UHGV virus genome: UHGV-1950618
Source of the DNA: a virus
Direction: 5' to 3' (one strand)
Length of the DNA: 15,356 bases
The translations under genes and the position numbers were made by a program. Of the stretch, positions 377 through 15,300 are shown in pieces; position 1 is the first letter of the stretch, and each line of letters begins with the position of its first letter. Below the pieces are notes generated by a model that was given only the letters and a program-made list of their open reading frames with translations, made no database searches and was not told the origin of the DNA.

Positions 377-1762
377 TCAGGTTTCCAGCCCAAAATCGCT
401 TTGTTCTGTTTTGGCTTCGAACATCGTGAAGTTAAGCCCTTTCCCCTCTCCATGTTCCAGTTCAATCTCATTAGAAACAGCGGTCAAAATACTACGTAGA
501 TCGACATCTCCACCGCCGAACATATCGCCCAACGCCTGCTGTTTATGAATCAGTTCGTCGTTGATTTTTTGTGCCATTTTTTTGAATGCAGCCCCCATGC
601 GCTTCGCGCTTCGATTATTTGCCACGATGAATAGCGCCAACGCCTCGGCTTCCGGCGGGCTATCACCGAAGAGTCCGCGCTGGGCTATCACCTCTTCCAC
701 TGCCTGACCGTTGTCTTTGGCTTCACGAACAAGGTTAATCGCGTCCTGGAGTGCTGCTATAGCCTGTTTATCCAGACCGTTCACCTGCTCTATACCATCA
801 ACCAGACCAGTTACAGCATCATGATGTGCATCGCCAGAAATCGACTGCATTTGCGCAAAGTCACTGGCTGCTGTATTAAGCGCGGTCAGGATATTGCGCA
901 TTTCCGGATCCGGTTCTTCCGCCACAAGCCGAACAAGTCGCTCATCCTTATAGGCTTTGGCAAAAATCGCATTCTGAATGCGATCGATAAGCTGTTTCGT
1001 TGGACGTCCATCGGCTGTAAGCAAACCTGCCGTCGCGGTATCGCCTATTTCGTGCAAAAACGCACGAATAAACGCATCATTGGACCGCGCCAGTAGATTT
1101 CCATCATCTGAAGGATTAAATAGCGCCATGACGCTCTCAGTGAGAAATTGCGCATCCGCATACGCTTTCTCACTTGCAGCCATCTCTTGCAGATCGCTGA
1201 TGTTTGAGTCGCGTGCAAATTGAGCACGATCAACGTCAGTGAGGCGCTCGCGAACCAGTACAGGCATCACCATTGCCCTGACGTCTTCGGGATTAAGGCC
1301 AAACTCTTTAGCGTGATCGATAAGATATTGTCGGTAATCTTCAGCCTGTCCTTGTTCATAAGCACGCCAGATTCCCATGCTTCGACCATTACCAGACTCA
1401 ACGACATTATCCGGACCAACAATCGGGGAACCATGACTACTCATACCCGAATCAGTGAGCTGTGCCGGGCGTAAATTGGCGGCGATACGGTTAACCTGGA
1501 GCTTACTTGACAGTCGGGTGCGATCGCGAGGCTGGAGTTCCTCCGGAAATGACGGATTTATACTTCCGTCCAGGTTGTTAGAAATGATGAGCTTTTTGGC
1601 ATCAATAACCTTGAACGCTGTTTTAACTTCGTCGCCTTTGCTGGTGACGACATAGCTGCTACGCCCCAACTTCGTCTCTTGCTTTTCAAGAGATGACACC
1701 ACAGCGATAACCCCCTCAATGTTCGCTGCGGCCAGAAGTGCTGATGTTACGTTTTGAGTCAC
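377..1762 (-). CDS. hypothetical 461-aa protein with a ParB/Srx-like N-terminal motif and a long helical C-terminal region
   Basis: Long ORF with a GTG start preceded by AAAGGTGG (Shine-Dalgarno-like) 6 nt upstream. Residues ~60-135 read INPSFPEELQPRDR ... GSPIVGPDNVVESGNGRSMGIWRA, which matches the ParB N-terminal pattern (QPR box, then a GxxR..A arginine motif). No Walker A motif. The gene has its own terminator and is separated from the upstream operon by a terminator. Confidence 0.6.
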   Translation of the reverse strand: MTQNVTSALLAAANIEGVIAVVSSLEKQETKLGRSSYVVTSKGDEVKTAFKVIDAKKLIISNNLDGSINPSFPEELQPRDRTRLSSKLQVNRIAANLRPAQLTDSGMSSHGSPIVGPDNVVESGNGRSMGIWRAYEQGQAEDYRQYLIDHAKEFGLNPEDVRAMVMPVLVRERLTDVDRAQFARDSNISDLQEMAASEKAYADAQFLTESVMALFNPSDDGNLLARSNDAFIRAFLHEIGDTATAGLLTADGRPTKQLIDRIQNAIFAKAYKDERLVRLVAEEPDPEMRNILTALNTAASDFAQMQSISGDAHHDAVTGLVDGIEQVNGLDKQAIAALQDAINLVREAKDNGQAVEEVIAQRGLFGDSPPEAEALALFIVANNRSAKRMGAAFKKMAQKINDELIHKQQALGDMFGGGDVDLRSILTAVSNEIELEHGEGKGLNFTMFEAKTEQSDFGLET

Positions 1763-1831
1763 AATTAACCACCTTTCTGTAAAAAAGGCAGTGTAAAAAG
1801 TGTGTTATTTCGGTGACTATTTTAAGAAGAA

Positions 1832-1848
1832 AGGGGCATTCTGCCCCT
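1832..1848 (-). terminator. intrinsic terminator closing the accessory operon
   Basis: Perfect 7-bp stem AGGGGCA/TGCCCCT with 3-nt loop, 5 nt after the stop at 1854-1856; on the minus strand followed by UUCUUCUUAAAAU. Confidence 0.6.
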
Positions 1849-1853
1849 CTCTT

Positions 1854-2225
1854 TTACGCTGCATACCCGTTAGCTGAAACCCAGTTTACGGTCTGTTCTT
1901 TGGCCTGGTCGAGTGTCAAAAATTCACCAATATATTGAGATATGCCTCTCAAAGCATCGATGAACTCCATTTGTGATGATTTAGTAAATGCACCACTAAG
2001 GAAGTCAGCAACAATTTTAGGCGTTTCTTGTGCCGCCGGTTGCACTTCCTCTTCTTGCTGTTGTGCTGGATTATTCGATGAACCAAGCCCCAGCTTCATC
2101 ATCACTTCAACTATCCGCACGCCAATAGTGACACGTTGTACCGCAGTCGCGCTTTTTTGCGCTGACATCAGCTCAGACAGTTCTTTGCCTAAGCTAAGGC
2201 GCTCCGTTACTGATATTTTCACCAC
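1854..2225 (-). CDS. 123-aa protein of unknown function, last gene of the accessory operon (DdrA-like by position only)
   Basis: GTGGTGA overlap with the stop of the 650-aa gene (translational coupling); a G-rich Shine-Dalgarno-like AAGGGGG lies just upstream. No recognisable motif; Gln/Glu-rich central linker. Confidence 0.55.
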   Translation of the reverse strand: MVKISVTERLSLGKELSELMSAQKSATAVQRVTIGVRIVEVMMKLGLGSSNNPAQQQEEEVQPAAQETPKIVADFLSGAFTKSSQMEFIDALRGISQYIGEFLTLDQAKEQTVNWVSANGYAA

Positions 2226-4171
2226 ACGCCCCCTTGTTGTATCTCTGCCAGAATGTTGATCAGGTGATCGGCTGCCGCACCAACAAGTGACTCGTTCTCA
2301 TCATATCGACCTGCGTTGATAAGAACATTAGCTGCCTCCTGAATGCGATCAAACTCCGCTCTAATCACCGTCAAATCACGGGACGTAAACTGCAACGGCA
2401 CGGATTTCAGATATTCCAGCGCACTGTCCGCCTCCTGATCAGCCTCACTAACTACTGGCCCATCTGAACCTGTATCAGACTCTTGGGGGGATTCAGGTTC
2501 AGACTCAGGTTCTGGTTCTTGTACTGCTTCCGGTGCCTGATCTAATGTCTGTTCAGCTTCGACTACTTCTGATTGATTCTGAAGCGCGTCATAGATATCC
2601 ATTATAAAAAGGTTCTCCCCATCTCCAAGTGGATAAGCGACGTTAGGAAATGCTTTGCGGAAGAGGATTTTTATCTGCGCCTTAAAGGTTTTCAAGTCGC
2701 TTCTAAACAGATCAACATAGCCATCAATATGGTTCGACATACTGGACGCAACCAATTCGCCTGCAATCTCTTTCAATTCATCGTCACCAGGGAGATATAG
2801 CAACTCGTACTGACTGACTTCTTCGTCTGTCAGTTTGCGGTCATACGTAATGATTCCGTGACGAGCATATTCGTAATACGGATCAGCCTGATCAGGACGG
2901 TCAAGTACAGCTTTATTTCCTTCAGGAACCGCACCAACACCCGCCGGGCGAGATTGGAGCGCATAGCGATATTTACCAACCTCCAGGGGATCAGGATGTG
3001 ATGCTGGTTGTGGCTCCTGTTCAGGCTGCGGCTGATCAGTTGGCTCAGGCTGGCCCGGCAACACATCCACTTTGTATTGATCAGCATTATGTTCACGATA
3101 GGCTTTAAGTAATTTGGTTGCAGCGTCCGCTGAACTCCCACCTTTAACAGCACTGACATCAATACTGAAATTGCCTTCTGGTGCCTCAATCGTGACAAAG
3201 CTATCACTGCCTGACGTGACATACTTAACTACAGCACCATTATCCAGCGTTGTTTGGCCTTCTGTAGCAAGATTATGTTTTATGTGTCGCAGTTGATCAT
3301 TGAAGGCACGCTCTTTAGTTCCTTGGCTCTTAGCTGACAATAAATTATCGCGTTTAGCCTGCAATTCCGCGTTAAGGGCTTTTTGTGCGTCTAATTTATT
3401 CTGCATATCATTGAGTGTTGAGCGTTTCTCTGCCAGCCCCCGCTGTGCGTCTTCAACCTGCTCAATCAGCACAGAACGTTCTTCTGCCAGCTTGTCGGCT
3501 TCATTGAGATACCCCTCAATATCAGCCTTCATTTTGTCCTGGCGCTCCTTTGCTTTTTTGAATTTTGCACTGTTACGCTCAATGAGGTTAGAAAGCGCCT
3601 GACACACCTGGCTCAGAGATACATCACGCCCACCGATTGGCGCAACAACATGCGTAACGTTTCTTTTGTTAAGAAGAAACTGAAACGCAACCAGCTCGTC
3701 ATCCCCTTTAATTCTTGTGCCGTCTGCGGTTGGAGAATGGAAAATTATGCTTGTCGTTTGTCCATCGGTTAGAGGTATTTGTGCTGTTACAACAGGGATA
3801 TTAGCAACCCGGCGCACGCGCCCAATGATTGCCCCACCGATACTATTACGTCCGTCTTCATATTCACCTGCCTCATCCGTACCCGCAGCAATGTCAGTGC
3901 CATTCAGGCCGCGATTAAGCGCCCGGACAAATGCTCGCATTGTTTGCGCTAACCGCAATTTTGTTGTGGTTATGGCTTCGAACATTGCCTCATTGGTAGT
4001 TACCAAAATTTCGTTGCCCATATAGGCCAGCTCGATATCTTCCAGCGTCGCAGGCTCGATAAGTAAATCATCCTCGGTGATATCTTCCGCCACCCAACGA
4101 TTAGGCGTATATCCAGTGAGCGTATCTGCAAAAGTGGACTGGATATTTATTCGAATAGGTTTCTTTATCAT
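2219..4171 (-). CDS. 650-aa coiled-coil protein with two acidic Pro/Glu-rich linkers; candidate virion-packaged antirestriction protein (DarA-like by size, position and paralogy)
   Basis: ATG start in an ATGA overlap with the upstream stop, GGAGG 7 nt upstream. Heptad-like charged region at aa ~200-290; linkers PEPTDQPQPEQEPQPASHPDP (2987-3055) and PEAVQEPEPESEPESPQESDTGSD (2432-2536). Residues ~110-215 are paralogous to the N-terminal half of the 205-aa protein encoded immediately upstream. Confidence 0.5.
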   Translation of the reverse strand: MIKKPIRINIQSTFADTLTGYTPNRWVAEDITEDDLLIEPATLEDIELAYMGNEILVTTNEAMFEAITTTKLRLAQTMRAFVRALNRGLNGTDIAAGTDEAGEYEDGRNSIGGAIIGRVRRVANIPVVTAQIPLTDGQTTSIIFHSPTADGTRIKGDDELVAFQFLLNKRNVTHVVAPIGGRDVSLSQVCQALSNLIERNSAKFKKAKERQDKMKADIEGYLNEADKLAEERSVLIEQVEDAQRGLAEKRSTLNDMQNKLDAQKALNAELQAKRDNLLSAKSQGTKERAFNDQLRHIKHNLATEGQTTLDNGAVVKYVTSGSDSFVTIEAPEGNFSIDVSAVKGGSSADAATKLLKAYREHNADQYKVDVLPGQPEPTDQPQPEQEPQPASHPDPLEVGKYRYALQSRPAGVGAVPEGNKAVLDRPDQADPYYEYARHGIITYDRKLTDEEVSQYELLYLPGDDELKEIAGELVASSMSNHIDGYVDLFRSDLKTFKAQIKILFRKAFPNVAYPLGDGENLFIMDIYDALQNQSEVVEAEQTLDQAPEAVQEPEPESEPESPQESDTGSDGPVVSEADQEADSALEYLKSVPLQFTSRDLTVIRAEFDRIQEAANVLINAGRYDENESLVGAAADHLINILAEIQQGGVW

Positions 4172-4785
4172 GCATCTTCCTCCAGGCGCGCTATTTCTTC
4201 TTTCAATACGCGAGTTTTCGCCAGTTCCTGCGCCATCTCGGTTCTAATGATTTCAGTTTCTCTTGTTGCGCGGTCTGAATTACCTTGCACCTGATTTAAT
4301 TTTTCTTTGGCCCTTTCAATATCCTCGCGGATCGCATCGCGAGATTCCTTTGCCTCTGCTAGTTTCTGCGCATTGGACTTAACGCCTTTTATTTTCTTAT
4401 TCCCATCATCAATATCTTTCGCCGCACGAGCTAACTTACGCGCCAATGATTTCTGAAATGATGATGCGCCTTTATTAAATAAAGCAGCCAGTGATTGCCC
4501 TAAAGCCATCAGCGTTTTAACTGGCTTGAAAGGAACAATTTTTCCGTTCAGTTTTACACCAGAAATATCACCAGTATCATTAACCTGAACGTCCATCGTC
4601 TGCTCATCGATTCCGATAAGGGTAAACGTGCGCGTCATGATCCCGTCTTTCTTCCTGCCATTACTGGCGGGGATCACCCTCGCTATCTTGTAGCCTCCTT
4701 TACCGATTTCTTTGACGAGTTTTGCCAGCCCCTTTTCGTTTAACTCATCATAATTAAGAAGAACATAATTAGACTTATTTGACAT
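4168..4785 (-). CDS. 205-aa protein paralogous to a segment of the 650-aa protein (Hdf-like); start re-assigned to the internal ATG
   Basis: The track starts at a TTG (4809), but an ATG at 4785-4783 is preceded by a perfect AAGGAG 6 nt upstream. GKGGYKIARVIPASNG and SLAALFNKGASSFQKSLARKLARAAKD parallel SIGGAIIGRVRRVANI and VCQALSNLIERNSAKFKKAKERQDKMK in the 650-aa protein. C-terminal coiled coil. Confidence 0.5.
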   Translation of the reverse strand: MSNKSNYVLLNYDELNEKGLAKLVKEIGKGGYKIARVIPASNGRKKDGIMTRTFTLIGIDEQTMDVQVNDTGDISGVKLNGKIVPFKPVKTLMALGQSLAALFNKGASSFQKSLARKLARAAKDIDDGNKKIKGVKSNAQKLAEAKESRDAIREDIERAKEKLNQVQGNSDRATRETEIIRTEMAQELAKTRVLKEEIARLEEDA

Positions 4786-5221
4786 TCCAGTCTCCTTCAC
4801 ACTTTTCAATCATAAACTGACGTTCTATGCAGTCATTGATAGGGAAAATGCGATAAAGCGGATTCAGGCGGCAATTACCGTTAGTCAATGTGACCTTTAG
4901 ATCCCACTTCGCTGGCTCAAGATATTTCGTGTCGATGAGCAAATATTCTTCTCTCTCACCGCGTTTTGACGCGTCAACTGGTCTGGTTTTCCCCGAAATA
5001 ACCACAGATGGATTTTTCAAGTCCTGCAACCAATATTCGATTTGTGCATTGCTTACCCAGCTTCGTTTAACGCGAAGCGACACAGGAAACGCTATAGCAG
5101 ACTCTTTCACTACAGCTTCGCCAATGCTCAAAATATCAACACTCTTGCGACGAAATAAGAAACGGTCAATAACGGCAACAAATGCCATGATAAAAATGAA
5201 ATAATTTCCAAAGTCACCCAT
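4775..5221 (-). CDS. 148-aa protein with one N-terminal transmembrane helix; candidate holin regulator (antiholin/LydB-like by position)
   Basis: TAATG stop/start overlap with the upstream holin-like gene. Hydrophobic segment NYFIFIMAFVAVIDRFLF at aa 6-23 followed by a Cys-containing soluble domain; no lysozyme or coiled-coil spanin signature. Confidence 0.45.
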   Translation of the reverse strand: MGDFGNYFIFIMAFVAVIDRFLFRRKSVDILSIGEAVVKESAIAFPVSLRVKRSWVSNAQIEYWLQDLKNPSVVISGKTRPVDASKRGEREEYLLIDTKYLEPAKWDLKVTLTNGNCRLNPLYRIFPINDCIERQFMIEKCEGDWNVK

Positions 5222-5547
5222 TACTTCTCTCCACCTTTTCCCCCACTCGCTATTACGCTTAAGAGATTCAAGACGTTACTAGCTCTGGACTTCAAGCCCT
5301 GTAAAATTTCACTTCCGTTGTTACTGGCAATCAGAACAACGCAGTAAATGATGCCTTCCGGCCATTCATAGCTATCAGCCACCCAAAACCCCGCAAGCCC
5401 GGCAGTTACCGCAGTAAACAATTCACTCGCGAGGTTGAGCAGTGACGCAGAAATGCGCCCGTCTCTAACTCCGAGAAGGAATACGCCGGTTCCACTCAGC
5501 AGGGATGTTATGACTGCTACAGCCAGATTTTCATAATCTGCAAACAT
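5221..5547 (-). CDS. 108-aa three-TM membrane protein, class I holin-like (LydA-like by position)
   Basis: Three hydrophobic helices (aa ~8-27, 36-57, 65-85) and a charged C-terminal tail ending KGGEK; ATG preceded by GGAGGGG. First gene after a ~460-bp spacer. Confidence 0.5.
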   Translation of the reverse strand: MFADYENLAVAVITSLLSGTGVFLLGVRDGRISASLLNLASELFTAVTAGLAGFWVADSYEWPEGIIYCVVLIASNNGSEILQGLKSRASNVLNLLSVIASGGKGGEK

Positions 5548-5859
5548 ACCCCTCCAGAAATGACGTTTAACGCGGCTTCAACTTATCCAGTTTGTTATTT
5601 CCCGACTAAATGCCATTCACACAAAATGGATGCATATGATGGCCCGGTGGTCCGTAAACCTCGTCACTCAGAGCGTGGAGGATGCCAAATTCGCGTATCA
5701 ACAAAATGGTCCAAACACGGCTTTAAAGAGAAATACGCTTGAATGCGCAAGATGTGAGCTGATTCTTGAGGACAAAATGATGACATGTGAGTCTTCACAA
5801 GCGTCATTCAGTGAATATAATGCCCCCCTCTCAGATACCACTAACTGAGTGTTCATTTT

Positions 5860-5893
5860 GCCCGCCGTCATTGACTGGACGGCGGCTTTTTTG
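5860..5893 (+). terminator. plus-strand intrinsic terminator with no convincing plus-strand gene upstream
   Basis: 8-bp GC stem CCGCCGTC/GACGGCGG (5862-5869 with 5878-5885), 8-nt loop, then C plus TTTTTT (5887-5892). Confidence 0.7.
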
Positions 5894-5942
5894 TACCAAA
5901 GGATTGTATTACTAAAAAAGGTCACAAAAGCACTCACTAATA

Positions 5943-5965
5943 AAGCCCTCAACAAAAGAGGGCTT
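5943..5965 (-). terminator. candidate terminator downstream of the tail-fibre assembly gene
   Basis: 8-bp stem AAGCCCTC/GAGGGCTT with 7-nt loop, 43 nt after the tfa stop; on the minus strand followed by UAUUAGUGAGUGCUUUUGUGACCUUUUUU (interrupted U tract). Confidence 0.5.
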
Positions 5966-6007
5966 GAAATATCAAAAAAGCAGTGCTGATTGGATTGTTA
6001 TGATTGT

Positions 6008-6430
6008 TTATGCAGGCATCTCAGGCCATGAGATATCTGCATCAACAGAAGTGTCAACTCTATTAAGAAGAACTCTATACCTCTTTAACTTTGTCAACAT
6101 TTCTATTTCCTCATCAGTGGCAATATCCATATCAACAGCATCCTGAAGCGTTGATATTTTTATGCTCACATCATTCATAAGACTACTTTTGGTGTTTTCA
6201 GCAATGCTGACTCTATCCTCTAAGCTCATAGGTTGTGGGTCAGATAACATTGGATAACCATCGCCATTTGCAATTATTATTTTCCCATTGCCATACCCTG
6301 ATAACAATTCATCATATAAGTCATCAGGTATATGTACAGCATCGGACGGCCATGAACCGTTTTTATCGTAATCTTCTTTTAGTCTATCGTCGTAGAAACC
6401 ACCAGTATCTTTGCTGTAATACTTTGCCAT
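6008..6430 (-). CDS. tfa: tail fibre assembly chaperone (Tfa / P2 gpG / P1 U family)
   Basis: C-terminus KLKRYRVLLNRVDTSVDADISWPEMPA matches the conserved Tfa C-terminal signature (KYRVLLNRVDTS...WP). Lies directly downstream of the tail fibre gene; AT-rich. Confidence 0.85.
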   Translation of the reverse strand: MAKYYSKDTGGFYDDRLKEDYDKNGSWPSDAVHIPDDLYDELLSGYGNGKIIIANGDGYPMLSDPQPMSLEDRVSIAENTKSSLMNDVSIKISTLQDAVDMDIATDEEIEMLTKLKRYRVLLNRVDTSVDADISWPEMPA

Positions 6431-6461: not shown

Positions 6462-9089
6462 TTAATACCCATAAGCAACATACTGTGCATATACTTTATC
6501 AGTAGAGCTACTTTTTACTGTAAAACCAGTGGCTGAGTTGTTGTATGTATAAAGAATTGCATTAACAGCATTCCCGCTATTAGGTGAAATCACAACTACC
6601 GCACACGCCTCAGGAAAAGCAGTCGGAAATTTAACTACGCTTCCTGGAGTAACAGCCGCTATAATCCCCCACTGCATCATCACCTTAGTTGATGTATCCT
6701 TATGCCATCCATGAATGTTGGCATATGCTGTGTTTTTAGCCTGATATTTCGTGTTGAAATTACTATAGTTACCAGGGGTAATCTGACCAGCGGCAGATAA
6801 ATTCCCCATAACCCTTACATGACCATCAGCACGTCCTAATTCTACGCGACCATCACCGCCATCTATCTTTAATGGAGTGTAAACGACATCACCATTAACA
6901 TTTTGCCCAGTGGTTGATATCTGGAAACTATATCCAGTATTAGTTATTAGGAATCCATAGTTATTATTATAAGTTAGGCGTATAGCATTTTGGCTGCTGG
7001 ATATAATTTCACCGGTAACAGTACCACCTGTTGTTGGTAACGCACCAACATGACTTGCCGTTAATGTGATATCTGCAGAACCATCAAACTTAACACCGTT
7101 GATTGTGCGGGCTGTTTGCAGTTTTGTAGCGGTTGCAGCATTACCTGTTGTGTTCTGGTTACCGGCAATGTTCACACCCGGCAGGTTGATATTGGCGCTG
7201 CCATCAAATGCCACCCCGCCGATTGTGCGTGCCGTCTGAAGTTTTGTTGCGGTTGCAGCATTACCGGTTGTGCTCTGATTACCTGTTTTATTAACGCCCG
7301 GCAGGTCGATATTGGCGGTGCCATCAAATGCCACCCCGCCGATCGTTCGGGCCATCTTGAGCTTTGTGGCAGTATCTGCGTTTCCCGTCAAATTACCTGT
7401 AATGCCACCACTAACTGTTACCCCATTACCGATGGACACCAACCCGGTTCTTAAATTTATAGCAAAAGGTCTTAATGGGCCGATGTCACCATTTTCTCCC
7501 TCACCTTCATTTGTCGGGATAAGATGAAGATATTCCTCGGATCTCCTGAAGATAAGGCCAAAGTCCTGGTTAAATATTCGAAGGGCATTTATTGTGCCAA
7601 TTTTTAGCTGCCCCCCCATTGTGTCGCCAGAACGCTGAACTGCGTTACCAGCTTGAGAAGCAATATCCGTTAAGCCAAGATCTTCAGGGGTCAGAGTAAT
7701 ATCTGCCGACCCATCAAATGCCACACCGTTAATCTTTCTGGCTGTTTTTAATTTCGTCGCAGTATCGGCGTTCCCGGTCAGCGTACCAGTGATCCCCGCG
7801 CTGAAAGTCTGGCGTGCACTCCAGGTATTAGCTGTGCTCAACAGGGGGAGCTTTTCTCCGCTGGTTCCGAGTTCTCTTAAACCAAGGTATTGGATAACAG
7901 CCAGTGTGCTTGTTTTAGCAAGAATATCGCGACCGACTGACGTTAAATCAGTCTGGGCTACAGTGTCTGTTCCGGTAAAGTACGGTAATTTATTTGCCCC
8001 CGTCGCCAGGTCAGCGAGCGCGGTTAAGGTTGCGTCGAGAGGCTGCTTACCTGCCAGGGCATTTGTCATTGTAGCCGCAAAGTTCGGGTCATTGCCCAGC
8101 GCCGCAGCAAGCTCATTAAGAGTATCAAGAGCTTCTGGTGATGAGCCGACCAATGCAGAAATAGCGGCACGAACATAAGCGGTTGTTGCAATCTGAGTGT
8201 TGTTCGTACCTTGTGACGCTGTAGGCGCTGTTGGCACCCCTGTAAATGCCGGGCTTAATAACGGTGCTTTAAGAGCTAAAGCAGCATTAATCGTCTGGCT
8301 AAACTGAGGATCATTGTTAATTGCATCTGCAATTTTTTTCAGCGTATCCAACGCTGAAGGAGAACCATCAATAAGGGCGGTTATTGCGGCCTGAACAAAG
8401 GCAGTGTTTGCGATTTGTGTACTGTTTGTACCTTGTTCCGGAGTTGGAGATTTAGGTATACCAATAAACTCCGGGCTATCAACCGGAGCTTTTAGTTTGT
8501 TTAACGTGCTGATAGCAAGAGGTGTTGCGGCTTTATATTCTTCGTCACTATCCAAAGCACTGGAAAACTCAACACCAACAGCACGATTAGCACGATATTC
8601 AGTGCTAATCATATCTGCGGTAACGGCTTGAGCATTGTCAGGCACGATCACGCGGCATAGCTCAATCTGGTTAGATGCTATTTCCTCATCAACGAGAGCA
8701 ATAATTCTCGCTGCGCTAATATCCGATGAGCTATCTACCTGGCTGGTTTTCACTCCATGTTCGTAATTAGCTTCAAGAACGATGATTGTCGTTACACCAG
8801 CTTCTACAGGAACAAGAACATCACTGACTTGCTGCACGGATATCTGACATTTACCCACGTCAATTGAAGCCGCCCCTCTTCCCTCTGTTTTCTCGGATGT
8901 AATACGCACAAACAGACCATCCCCTGGCACCGGTTCAAACCCACAGTACACTCCGGGCAGAACGATATTTTTCATCTTCCTGTTTAGAGCTTCGGTGCTA
9001 TACAGCTCAAAGTATTGCATGTCTGCAATTAGTGGAGCGGAAATGTCCGAAGATAAGGTGACAATATTCTTTACTTTATCTGCGCACAT
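6462..9089 (-). CDS. tail fibre protein (875 aa)
   Basis: Characteristic fibre repeats: two ~75-aa units (PxxSPxFxG.P..P....GTN.TQIA.TA.V.AAI.AL..SP.ALDTL...A.A..NDP.F) and four ~40-aa units (TGNA.TATKL.TAR.I.GV.FDGSA.I.L). ATG start 2 nt after the upstream stop. Followed by tfa. Confidence 0.9.
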   Translation of the reverse strand: MCADKVKNIVTLSSDISAPLIADMQYFELYSTEALNRKMKNIVLPGVYCGFEPVPGDGLFVRITSEKTEGRGAASIDVGKCQISVQQVSDVLVPVEAGVTTIIVLEANYEHGVKTSQVDSSSDISAARIIALVDEEIASNQIELCRVIVPDNAQAVTADMISTEYRANRAVGVEFSSALDSDEEYKAATPLAISTLNKLKAPVDSPEFIGIPKSPTPEQGTNSTQIANTAFVQAAITALIDGSPSALDTLKKIADAINNDPQFSQTINAALALKAPLLSPAFTGVPTAPTASQGTNNTQIATTAYVRAAISALVGSSPEALDTLNELAAALGNDPNFAATMTNALAGKQPLDATLTALADLATGANKLPYFTGTDTVAQTDLTSVGRDILAKTSTLAVIQYLGLRELGTSGEKLPLLSTANTWSARQTFSAGITGTLTGNADTATKLKTARKINGVAFDGSADITLTPEDLGLTDIASQAGNAVQRSGDTMGGQLKIGTINALRIFNQDFGLIFRRSEEYLHLIPTNEGEGENGDIGPLRPFAINLRTGLVSIGNGVTVSGGITGNLTGNADTATKLKMARTIGGVAFDGTANIDLPGVNKTGNQSTTGNAATATKLQTARTIGGVAFDGSANINLPGVNIAGNQNTTGNAATATKLQTARTINGVKFDGSADITLTASHVGALPTTGGTVTGEIISSSQNAIRLTYNNNYGFLITNTGYSFQISTTGQNVNGDVVYTPLKIDGGDGRVELGRADGHVRVMGNLSAAGQITPGNYSNFNTKYQAKNTAYANIHGWHKDTSTKVMMQWGIIAAVTPGSVVKFPTAFPEACAVVVISPNSGNAVNAILYTYNNSATGFTVKSSSTDKVYAQYVAYGY
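7050..7440 (-). repeat. three tandem ~120-nt coding repeats inside the tail fibre gene, plus a fourth dispersed copy at ~7680-7799
   Basis: Near-identical DNA units are visible at ~7081-7200, 7201-7320 and 7321-7440. GVAFDG is encoded at 7320-7337 and again at 7710-7727 (checked by reverse-complement translation). Confidence 0.85.
8040..8495 (-). repeat. two consecutive ~75-aa fibre repeats (coding)
   Basis: aa ~199-272 and 273-350 of the fibre share the same motif order; the corresponding DNA at ~8161-8280 and ~8341-8460 is visibly similar. Confidence 0.7.
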
Positions 9090-9538: not shown

Positions 9539-9623
9539 ACGAACATAGCCCCTTTAACAAGCAATAAATCGAAGGGCAGTATGTTCAGTTTGTGATTTCC
9601 AGTGGTCTTTTGTTTTGAGAAAT

Positions 9624-12313: not shown

Positions 12314-15300
12314 TTAATCCTCCAGTAATTTGTCAAGAGATGGGTCATTGATAGTCGTGCTGGCACGCTGACGAGGTTGTGGTTGTGATGTGTTCACAAC
12401 TTTGTCCTGATCGCCTTTTCGGTTGTCTTTGCTTACGCCAAGAATCTCTTTGAGAACGGAATAAACGTTCTCCAGTGCTTTCAACATAGCCGGATCGTTA
12501 TTTGCGGTATCTGTTGTTAGCATCTGCCTTATTCCGCTTCGTGCGAGGTCCGTGACGATTGGTAGCTGCGGAGGCATTGCAAGGAACGGTTCTTTAGCAG
12601 CCACGCCCGAAGCAAACAGGCTTTGATTGATTGCGCCAGTTGTGTCCCTGATCGTATCCGCCGTTTTCTGTATGCCACCATTCAGCCAACCGCCAACACT
12701 CCTTGTTAACGGACTAATAGCGCGAGCAACATCGGTATTCTGTCCAGAGGACTGCAATACAAAGTCATTTAACATTCCGGTGCTATCAATACCGCCCACA
12801 AGTCGCGAGAGGTTATCTCCAACGGCGGGGAGGACGGCGGAGCCTACCTGGTTAAGCCCTGACACAGTTGAATCAAATAGCGAGCCAAAGAAGCCCCTGT
12901 CCTCACCTTCAACCACCTTGTAGCCGTTGTCGTACATCTGCACACCCGCCGGTGTCGATGTGGCACGCTTCTCGCTGATGGTTGCCGGACTCTCCGGAAG
13001 CAGGCCAATGGTTTCTGTATCGCGGTTAACGTTGCGCTTTTGCTGTATAGCCGTAGTGATATCGGCGATCTGTTCCGCCTTCTGGAAACTAAAGTTTTTG
13101 CCCGTTGCTCTGGATATTTTTTCAACAAGAAACTTATCCAATTGCTTGGCTTTTGCTGCTAACGAGGACATCTCTTCCGGAGAACTGACAGGGCCGAGAT
13201 TTAGCCCCATATTGGGATCTCCCCCAACTATCCCGGCGATGACGCCCCCAACACCGTCTGCACTCATTAACCGCTCCGTCAATCCGGCTGCGGCGGAAGA
13301 ATTGCCACTAGCTTTCGCGTGGCTGATCGCCTGGGCATTTTCCTGTTGAGCTGCCTTCGGTTTTTTAGCTGCCTGTGCGTGTTGAACCACGTCAGTAGGG
13401 CTAGGCATTACAGCCTGGGCTACGCTTGACGCAGGAATAGCAGAAGATGAGCCGTTGGCGTATTTGACTTTGCTACCGACACTATATTGGGAGTTGCGAG
13501 CGATTAGAGGACCGCCCTTTTCCTTCTGGATTTTATTAATGTGTTCCAGCGTTTCATCATTGAATTGCCCTTCCCAACGCCCAGTTTTAGCGTTGAATGA
13601 ACCAAGAGCTGTTTTGATGAAATTGTTGTTAACCGCCGGGTTACCCCCCTCCTTCGTCGCAATGGCGCGAACAAGGTGCGTCATAACTTCAGGGTTGCTA
13701 ACGTCTATTTTATCGTTGGGGGATACCCCGAGATATTTGCTGACGTTTTCAATGTACTGATTGGTGTTGTTCTCTGTTGGTGGTGCCCATTTTGAAATGA
13801 TGCTGGATACTGTTTGCAGCTTCTGATACCCGGCGGCAGCACTTGTACCGTTGTAATAACTCGATACCTGGTTTGCCAATGCCCGAATCCCTTCTTCGGG
13901 CGTATTAAACCGCGCAAAACGCTGTTCGCCTTTCGCGTTCGGCGCTTCCAGTACCGCCCCCTCCTGATTTGCAAAAACCAGGTTCCCCAGGTTGTTATTC
14001 CGGTAATTCCTGTTCTTGGCGTTGCTTCCGCCTATATTCAGATCAGCCGTTATTGTATTTTTTTCAGGCGCTTTAAATTCGTCTGGCGATTTGTAGCCGT
14101 GTTCACCCACGCCATCCTCACCTCTGCGCCCGCCCTGTAGCTGTCGGGCCAGATCATTAATTGCGGCTACCGTTTGCTTGGTGCCATCTTCAACGGCTTT
14201 CTTAACCTGCGCAGTGCCTTCGCTGCTTGATGAGAACGATTCTTTTAGGCTGCTGAATGCGTTCTTCGACGCGTCGATAGAACTATTTATGCCGCGAGCG
14301 ATATTGCTGGTATCAAGACTCTGAAGTTTTTGTCCGACACCTTCAAAGCCTAGCGCGGACATCCCCTCGCCAATGAGGTTAGCCGCTCCCGTCACCAGAC
14401 CGCCCATATCCAGGACGTTAGCAGCGGCGTAGGCGCTCTTTTGCTGTGTTGTAACGTCCTGCCCTTCCTTCAGGTTATAAGTCGCCCTCTGCGCTTCTGT
14501 GTCGCTGTAGCCGTCTACGGCATCATAACCAACCATAGCCACCTGGCCGATGACTGGAATCGCCCTGAATCCGGCCCTTGCGGCAACACCTCCGGCAGCT
14601 TTGAGAGCCACTTTTCCAGCTTCTTTTTTCGCGATGGTTTCACCAGTGGCAACGGCAACCTTACCCGCCTCTTTCCTGGTAAGGCTTTCCCCAGCGAAAG
14701 TTGCCGCTTTACCAGCGTCTTTCCCTGCCGCTCCACCAGTCACCGTTTTGGCTACACTTTCTTCAGTGACCTTACCTGCTCTGGTTTTAACTGAAGATTT
14801 ATCACCCGATGATTTTGGTGAGGTACTACCCTCGTTCCCACCAGCATTTTTTGTCCGATTTTTTTCCTCGCCCGCACTGTTGTTTTTGCCTGGCTGATTT
14901 TTTTTCCCCTCTTTGCCTTCCTGACTCCTGCCCGTCTCAGTAGGTTTGCTGGTGTTTTTTCCCTTCTTGCCCTTGTTTTCTTTACTGTCTCCAGTGCGGC
15001 CCGTGTTGCCACCACGTGCACTGCTACGACCGCGTGTAGGGGATATTTTGGTACGTAATCCGCCACCGCCGAGGAGGTCGCTCAGTTTTAGCCCACTCTC
15101 CTGCGACTTTCGTAGTTTCCGGATCTCTTCGGATACAGTTTCCAGCTCATCAATTATCTGGCTGTCGTTGCGTTGAAGAACTTTCGTTTGTTCTTCGATC
15201 GCACGTACAGATTTTTCTTTAACGGCTTCAGTAAATGCCTTTGCTGAACCGGGCGCGTTATCTGGAGTCTTCCTTTCATTGTCAGGTGCCGGGTAAGTAA

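Follow-up and report, generated by a model that had tools for sequence, protein, structure and literature searches.

The window analysed here, the whole 15,356-nucleotide (nt) stretch of UHGV virus genome UHGV-1950618, carries a pair of small minus-strand genes that very probably encode the holin LydA and its antiholin LydB, the first two genes of the late dar operon of a D6-like plasmid prophage of the P1 family. A first-pass annotation of the same DNA had proposed a holin with a lysis-timing partner at 4775-5547; homology and synteny to P1 lydA/lydB support this reading, and the coordinates given for the two open reading frames (ORFs) were exact. The pair and its ribosome-binding sequence are as follows.

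5221..5547, minus strand: lydA, 108 amino acids (aa), LydA-family holin, by homology to PHROG 1527, P1 LydA and D6 orf30
4775..5221, minus strand: lydB, 148 aa, LydB-family holin antagonist, by PF16084, PHROG 1898 and P1/D6 homology
5551..5555, minus strand: strong Shine-Dalgarno sequence of lydA, GGAGG, read off the sequence

Both are real genes. They meet at a TAATG stop/start overlap, and lydB in turn overlaps the probable ATG of the hdf homologue that follows it by 11 nt. Comparison with phage D6 gave ratios of nonsynonymous to synonymous substitution rates (dN/dS) of 0.22 for lydA and 0.076 for lydB, indicating purifying selection on both.

The 108-aa protein matched the PHROG 1527 'holin' family over residues 2-107 (E=1.3e-38), P1 LydA with 41% identity over 99 aa (BLASTP, E=4e-25), and the D6 orf30 'holin' with 94% identity; no clear homology to a non-holin membrane family emerged. 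It shares the traits of the family, being small, with at least two transmembrane (TM) segments and a basic C-terminal region, and it occupies the family's position as the first gene of the dar operon, directly upstream of lydB. The 148-aa protein scored 86.9 bits against the Pfam family PF16084 'LydA-holin antagonist' (gathering score 28), matched PHROG 1898 at E=4e-68, and was 34% identical to P1 LydB (E=2e-30) and 93.9% identical to the D6 orf29 'holin antagonist'. By these matches, the second gene is specifically an antiholin. It adjoins and is coupled to lydA in all of the relatives examined (P1, D6, Xenorhabdus and metagenomic contigs). Truncated LydB clusters of 107 aa are also present in the protein database (P0015, P0026). 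NCBIfam has no model for LydA or LydB, and PDB sequence searches with both proteins returned no significant relative, the best being a chance match to Ras (E=0.05).

The P1 counterparts have been studied experimentally. Lyz, LydA and LydB of P1 cooperate in lysis when expressed from plasmids, lydB amber mutants lyse prematurely, and lysis is delayed when lydB is added to a plasmid carrying lyz and lydA; LydA and LydC act as canonical holins, with LydD as the pinholin (PMC9025707). The arrangement found in the window is already known, as it is the documented organisation of P1, P7 and D6.

The identity of the element was assessed by comparison with its closest relatives. Over its full length the window is 98.7% identical to the 89.7-kb Escherichia coli plasmid pMUB-MIN14-1 (NZ_CP069647.1), hereafter the sibling plasmid, and the stretch from lydA to hdf is ~85% identical to phage D6. 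Because of these identities and the lydA/lydB homology, we assign the element, from its sequence, to the D6-like, P1-family phage-plasmids of Escherichia. The gene order tail fibre, tail-fibre assembly protein (TAP), lydA-like, lydB, hdf, darA, ddrB is kept in Xenorhabdus plasmids and in metagenomic contigs of ~90 kb, and LydB of the metagenomic relatives is 47-48% identical. RefSeq annotates the sibling plasmid differently, calling lydB a 'hypothetical protein' of 107 aa and joining hdf and darA into a single 855-aa 'head protein' (locus L003, 7888-8211 and 5209-7776); indels, frameshifts or different start sites may set it apart from the window here.

Neither a lysis endolysin nor a credible lipobox or Rz1-like ORF was found in the window by family searches and ORF inspection, and there is no contiguous holin-endolysin-spanin cassette. 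The first-pass annotation had likewise seen no endolysin or Rz/Rz1-like gene here, and that observation holds, as the sole muralytic domain lies inside the virion Sit-like protein, which is an entry enzyme and not a lysis enzyme.

12314-14743, minus strand: Sit-like protein, PHROG 7182 'tail injection transglycosylase'; the ORF is incomplete and runs off the window

The Sit-like protein had no Pfam match at E<=0.01, and its residues 241-372 match a PHROG annotated as endolysin.

A candidate lysis enzyme is present elsewhere on the relatives. The sibling plasmid encodes a 161-aa protein (NZ_CP069647.1, 65657-66142; locus L007, 20657-21142) with a CHAP domain (E=1e-7) and a TIGR02594 match of 142.7 bits (cut-off 70.55); its D6 counterpart is orf16, a 'putative peptidoglycan hydrolase'. 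The distance between holin and endolysin genes is 9,972 nt in P1, 11,396 nt in D6 and 11,268 nt in the sibling plasmid. P1 is known to carry lyz away from lydA, with the spanin genes in yet another operon (Bednarek et al. 2022, PMC9025707), and D6-like prophages have been described as carrying a 'P1-related lysis module' together with a separate peptidoglycan hydrolase (PMC6799933). That the holin gene stands apart from the endolysin gene and is linked to antirestriction genes is ancestral to the family and did not arise by rearrangement in the window. The earlier suggestion of a holin separated from the lysin and tied to antirestriction genes is thus correct by homology and synteny: the pair stands at the head of the hdf-darA-ddrA operon. 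In the Xenorhabdus relatives, the dar genes are followed directly by a gene with a CHAP domain, only ~3 kb downstream of lydB (locus L009, 9570-10073).

The properties of the candidate endolysin bear on what kind of holin LydA is. A pinholin-type depolariser would make small holes and leave the release of endolysin to another protein. P1 does use such a system, with a signal-arrest-release (SAR) endolysin and the pinholin LydD (PMC9025707), and LydA is small, with two clear TM segments in a layout typical of pinholins. However, it is LydD that is the pinholin of P1, where LydA and LydC are canonical holins (PMC9025707), and the N-terminus of the lineage's candidate endolysin is hydrophilic, without a hydrophobic SAR segment, so that the enzyme needs large holes. 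Nor did the window show a lydC or lydD homologue; outside it, the sibling replicon was viewed by annotation only, with no LydC/LydD search there. On two grounds, the missing SAR segment of the candidate endolysin and the canonical holin behaviour of P1 LydA, we consider a pinholin role unlikely, and we give this reading as a whole a very low probability. A true hole-forming holin is what a candidate endolysin without a SAR segment would require of LydA.

A 14-nt pattern, GAAATMACAMACTK, occurs three times in the window, against 0.06 occurrences expected from shuffles. All three copies are sense-oriented and lie ~40-55 nt upstream of minus-strand genes.

5588..5601, minus strand: candidate late-promoter upstream box GAAATAACAAACTG, before lydA, centred at about -22 from the inferred start
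5580-5585, minus strand: -10-like hexamer TAAGTT, 2 nt after the lydA box
1798..1811, minus strand: late-promoter box copy GAAATAACACACTT, in front of the ddrB-like gene
9586-9599, minus strand: late-promoter box copy, upstream of the R-like gene of the tail-fibre operon

A NANNNT hexamer follows most copies at 2-3 nt. In D6 and the sibling plasmid the box precedes mat, R, lydA, ddrB and prt, and also orf57 (upfC-like). This layout parallels the annotated P1 promoter LPdar, which has a -22 box (AAGTnACTT in P1) and a -10 element; P1 annotation places the genes from lydA to ddrB behind LPdar, and lyz behind a late promoter of its own. The 14-nt sequence is therefore probably the late-promoter (Lpa) box of the D6 lineage, as judged by its motif and positions. 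Ahead of the CHAP gene, D6 and the sibling plasmid each carry a degenerate version of the box, with CATAGT as its hexamer, which hints that the holin and endolysin genes may come under common late control although they lie far apart. The P1-type -22 box (AAGTnACTT with TANNNT) was also sought in the window and had no match in a promoter context. An AAGTT upstream of lydA might pass for a half-site but fits better within the -10-like hexamer TAAGTT.

The promoter context also bears on an alternative raised in the first-pass annotation, in which the pair would be a module for superinfection exclusion or abortive infection that acts at the membrane and is carried alongside antirestriction genes. 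Holin-like proteins can serve as abortive-infection effectors in other systems. The proteins here are small, membrane-associated and encoded beside anti-defence genes, and a HicAB toxin-antitoxin pair lies nearby. Against this, neither LydA nor LydB matched a PADLOC family at E<=0.01, both PHROGs (1527 and 1898) are classed under lysis, and lysis phenotypes are known for the P1 orthologues. The upstream sequence resembles a late promoter common to structural operons, and not a promoter expressed in lysogens, and the gene order with virion genes is conserved across genera. The proposal found no support in these comparisons, and we regard it as extremely improbable.

As to membrane topology, the first-pass annotation had described LydA as a classic class I holin with three TM segments and a charged tail. 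Kyte-Doolittle analysis gives two segments of TM length, ~7-27 and 34-57, the second with an invariant E42; the third apolar block is short, at ~11 residues (65-75), and is followed by an invariant N76-N77. In five diverse family members the charges are -2 at the N-terminus, +1 to +3 in loop 1, -3 to 0 in loop 2 and +1 to +3 in the tail, a pattern that fits an N-out/C-in layout with three TM segments. The LydA tail is only weakly basic, at net +2 over 33 residues. Its N-terminus, MFADYEN, contains no second Met or Lys-Met motif, so the dual-start motif of class I holins is not present. The original description is only partly borne out: the two TM segments are robust and the charge pattern fits, but the short third block leaves a topology of three TM segments uncertain, and the label 'classic class I' is not established.

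LydB had been called a single-pass membrane protein. A structure model predicts an N-terminal hydrophobic helix at residues 4-23, and an immunoglobulin (Ig)/fibronectin type III-like beta-sandwich at residues 28-147. Among 26 LydB-family members, an N-terminal apolar run of 13-18 residues is followed by an invariant D19-R20 and a cluster of charge +2/+3, and only 17 of the 26 are hydrophobic enough to pass the usual 19-residue threshold. An anchor in the membrane is thus plausible, though borderline, and the single-pass assignment is unproven. By the positive-inside rule, we hypothesise that the beta-sandwich would lie on the cytoplasmic side.

Several observations weigh against the identification of the pair as lydA and lydB, or against the mechanism proposed below. 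Identity to the experimentally tested P1 proteins is only 34-41%, and function in this element is assigned by homology. LydA scored 20.5 bits (E=5e-4) against the Pfam model PF16083 (Phage_holin_3_3), under its gathering score of 28.4; the family assignment is carried by the PHROG and pairwise matches, the Pfam model being narrow. The LydA AlphaFold model is poor, with a predicted local distance difference test score (pLDDT) of 56, too weak to settle the topology, and with two TM-length segments and a short third block the number of TM segments is 2 or 3; P1 LydA has two predicted TM helices (PMC9025707). The same source gives P1 LydB no predicted TM domain and describes its mode of action as unknown, so membrane-anchored binding by LydB is our inference. 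The promoter box is recognised by its motif, and the copy before the CHAP gene carries 3 mismatches; ~6.6% of random 200-nt windows contain a match as good. Finally, the best PHROG match of the CHAP protein is phrog_1259 'baseplate hub subunit and tail lysozyme', and its role as lysis endolysin is assumed.

With these points in mind, the lydA holin/lydB antiholin reading suggests the following course of events. Late in infection, an Lpa-type activator would switch on the promoter-like sequence ~40 nt upstream of lydA. The TAATG overlap couples translation of the two genes, so that both proteins are made together. If LydA acts as its P1 homologue does, it would build up in the inner membrane and, at a critical level, form lethal holes; these would collapse the membrane potential and open the wall to the endolysin, with LydB delaying the triggering. 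LydB may act at the membrane through its N-terminal hydrophobic helix in an N-out/C-in orientation, where its cytoplasmic Ig-like beta-sandwich could bind LydA. The muralytic partner would be the 161-aa CHAP/TIGR02594 hydrolase encoded ~11 kb away, as placed in the sibling plasmid and D6.

We tentatively extend this scheme to the lineage as a whole, in a form that we think rather less likely to be right than wrong. In the D6 lineage, LydA/LydB may have been re-partnered, working with a soluble CHAP-type endolysin where P1 has its SAR lysozyme and pinholin; a GAAATMACAMACTK plus NANNNT box unlike the P1 -22 box may synchronise the two loci across 11 kb, and LydB may be a membrane-tethered, Ig-like beta-sandwich antiholin of a structural type undescribed among characterised antiholins.

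The genes downstream of the pair are those of the dar operon, and the pair is joined to them as follows.

4168..4785, minus strand: hdf homologue, Hdf-like antirestriction/head protein; PHROG 1620 (E=3e-72, from residue 9), Pfam DarA_N, D6/P1 annotation
2219..4171, minus strand: darA homologue, defence against restriction and internal head protein; DarA_N (E=8e-40), DarA_C (E=4e-19), PHROG 1926, D6/P1 annotation
1854..2225, minus strand: ddrA homologue; PHROG 1855 'DdrA-like anti-restriction protein' (E=1.4e-44)
1824..1847, minus strand: GC-rich hairpin GGGGCA-GAA-TGCCCC followed by TTTCTTCTT, directly after ddrA, read off the sequence
377..1762, minus strand: short ddrB-like gene, 461 aa; Pfam PF18763 ddrB-ParB (E=2.7e-40), D6 orf25 'similar to P1 ddrB'

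The likely start of hdf is the ATG at 4785; the mechanical ORF start is a TTG at 4809. The hairpin at 1824-1847 resembles a terminator and would mark the end of the lydA-ddrA transcription unit. The ddrB-like protein, at 461 aa, has the ParB-like N-terminal ddrB domain only, compared with 995 aa for P1 DdrB. With a promoter box of its own in front of the ddrB-like gene, and the terminator-like hairpin between ddrA and that gene, the dar region here may comprise two transcription units. A main role for LydB in head morphogenesis or in the packaging of antirestriction proteins, like that of Hdf/DarA and with only a secondary effect on lysis, might be read from its co-transcription and overlap with hdf, from the effects of dar operon genes on head morphogenesis (as stated in titles cited in PMC9025707) and from a beta-sandwich fold that is a generic binding module, but in P1 both the amber mutants and the plasmid experiments show that LydB directly antagonises lysis by LydA, and lydB is always beside and coupled to lydA in every relative examined, which leaves this role with next to no probability.

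Upstream of lydA, a 460-nt spacer (5548-6007) separates the gene from the tail-fibre assembly gene, and the minus-strand block continues through the tail fibre and R-like genes, with baseplate genes between the R-like and Sit-like genes.

5689..5776, plus strand: decayed 5' remnant of the cin DNA invertase gene (~Cin residues 11-34), in a 72-aa ORF matching PHROG 8275 'DNA invertase' (E=2e-9)
6008-6430, minus strand: Caudo_TAP tail-fibre assembly gene
6462-9089, minus strand: tail fibre, 875 aa
9092-9538, minus strand: R-like gene

The cin remnant is 71% identical to D6/P1 Cin over 24 aa (tblastn) and 80-82% identical over 84-87 nt (blastn). It lies outside the lysis pair and shows where cin, the invertible C segment and lydC were lost upstream of lydA. 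No lydC homologue was found in the spacer (tblastn, E>=0.1), and its 85-aa and 60-aa ORFs had no family matches. The spacer also contains a strong plus-strand terminator (5862-5885) and a sigma-70-like promoter (5794-5821, 11/12 matches). The tail fibre of this lineage is single and fixed, as it is in the Xenorhabdus and metagenomic relatives (loci L009, L011). The tail fibre contains several internal repeats of GN(A/Q)(D/S)T(A/T)(T/G)...TA(R/T)(K/T)I(N/G)GV(A/K)FDG(S/T)A(D/N)I; its distal part is unlike D6, and plasmid matches break near 7100-7700, which points to a mosaic, host-range-determining region. At the other end of the window, 52-264 on the plus strand encodes the C-terminal part of a HicB-like antitoxin ORF (PHROG 497), and on the sibling plasmid the HicA toxin gene lies just upstream of it. 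In place of the HicAB pair, which is located between ddrB and the portal region, D6 has orf23 and orf24, two hypothetical genes unrelated to it.

The practical value of these assignments lies in annotation, as the names lydA and lydB can now be given to the two genes that RefSeq lists as 'hypothetical protein' on the 98.7%-identical plasmid. Their value as discovery is small, for they rediscover the documented, atypical lysis-gene organisation of P1-family phage-plasmids. The promoter box, the non-SAR CHAP partner and the LydB beta-sandwich model could help the study of P1-like lysis timing, because the mode of action of LydB is still described as unknown (PMC9025707).

The closest characterised systems are those of P1 and P7 (AF234172; Schmidt et al. 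1996 and Iida et al. 1998, cited in PMC9025707); in P1, LydA and LydB have 109 and 147 aa, compared with 108 and 148 here. P1 shares the stop/start overlap, the lydA-lydB-hdf-darA-ddrA-ddrB order, the adjoining tail-fibre operon and a remote endolysin gene. It differs in carrying lydC, cin and an invertible C segment with alternative S'/U' genes at the site where this element has only a cin remnant; in using the SAR lysozyme Lyz with the adjacent pinholin LydD, whereas this lineage has a CHAP-type hydrolase that lacks a SAR segment; and in its late-promoter box, AAGTnACTT in place of GAAATMACAMACTK. The ddrB-like gene here is also half the length of its P1 counterpart. The resemblance to D6 (orf30/orf29, MF356679) is closer, with 94% identity for both proteins and the same operon, overlaps, promoter box and distance to the endolysin candidate. 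In D6 the cin invertase gene upstream of lydA is still intact and is accompanied by an invertible tail-fibre segment with alternative S'/U' genes, and similarity to the window stops ~55 nt upstream of lydA. Lambda S105/S107 offers a functional parallel, as there too an antagonist delays the triggering of a small holin in the inner membrane, and the LydA charges are compatible with the same N-out/C-in arrangement of three TM segments. Unlike the lambda system, to which Pfam and PHROG searches detected no sequence homology, LydA has no dual start and belongs to no holin-endolysin-spanin cassette, and its antagonist is a separate, unrelated 148-aa protein.

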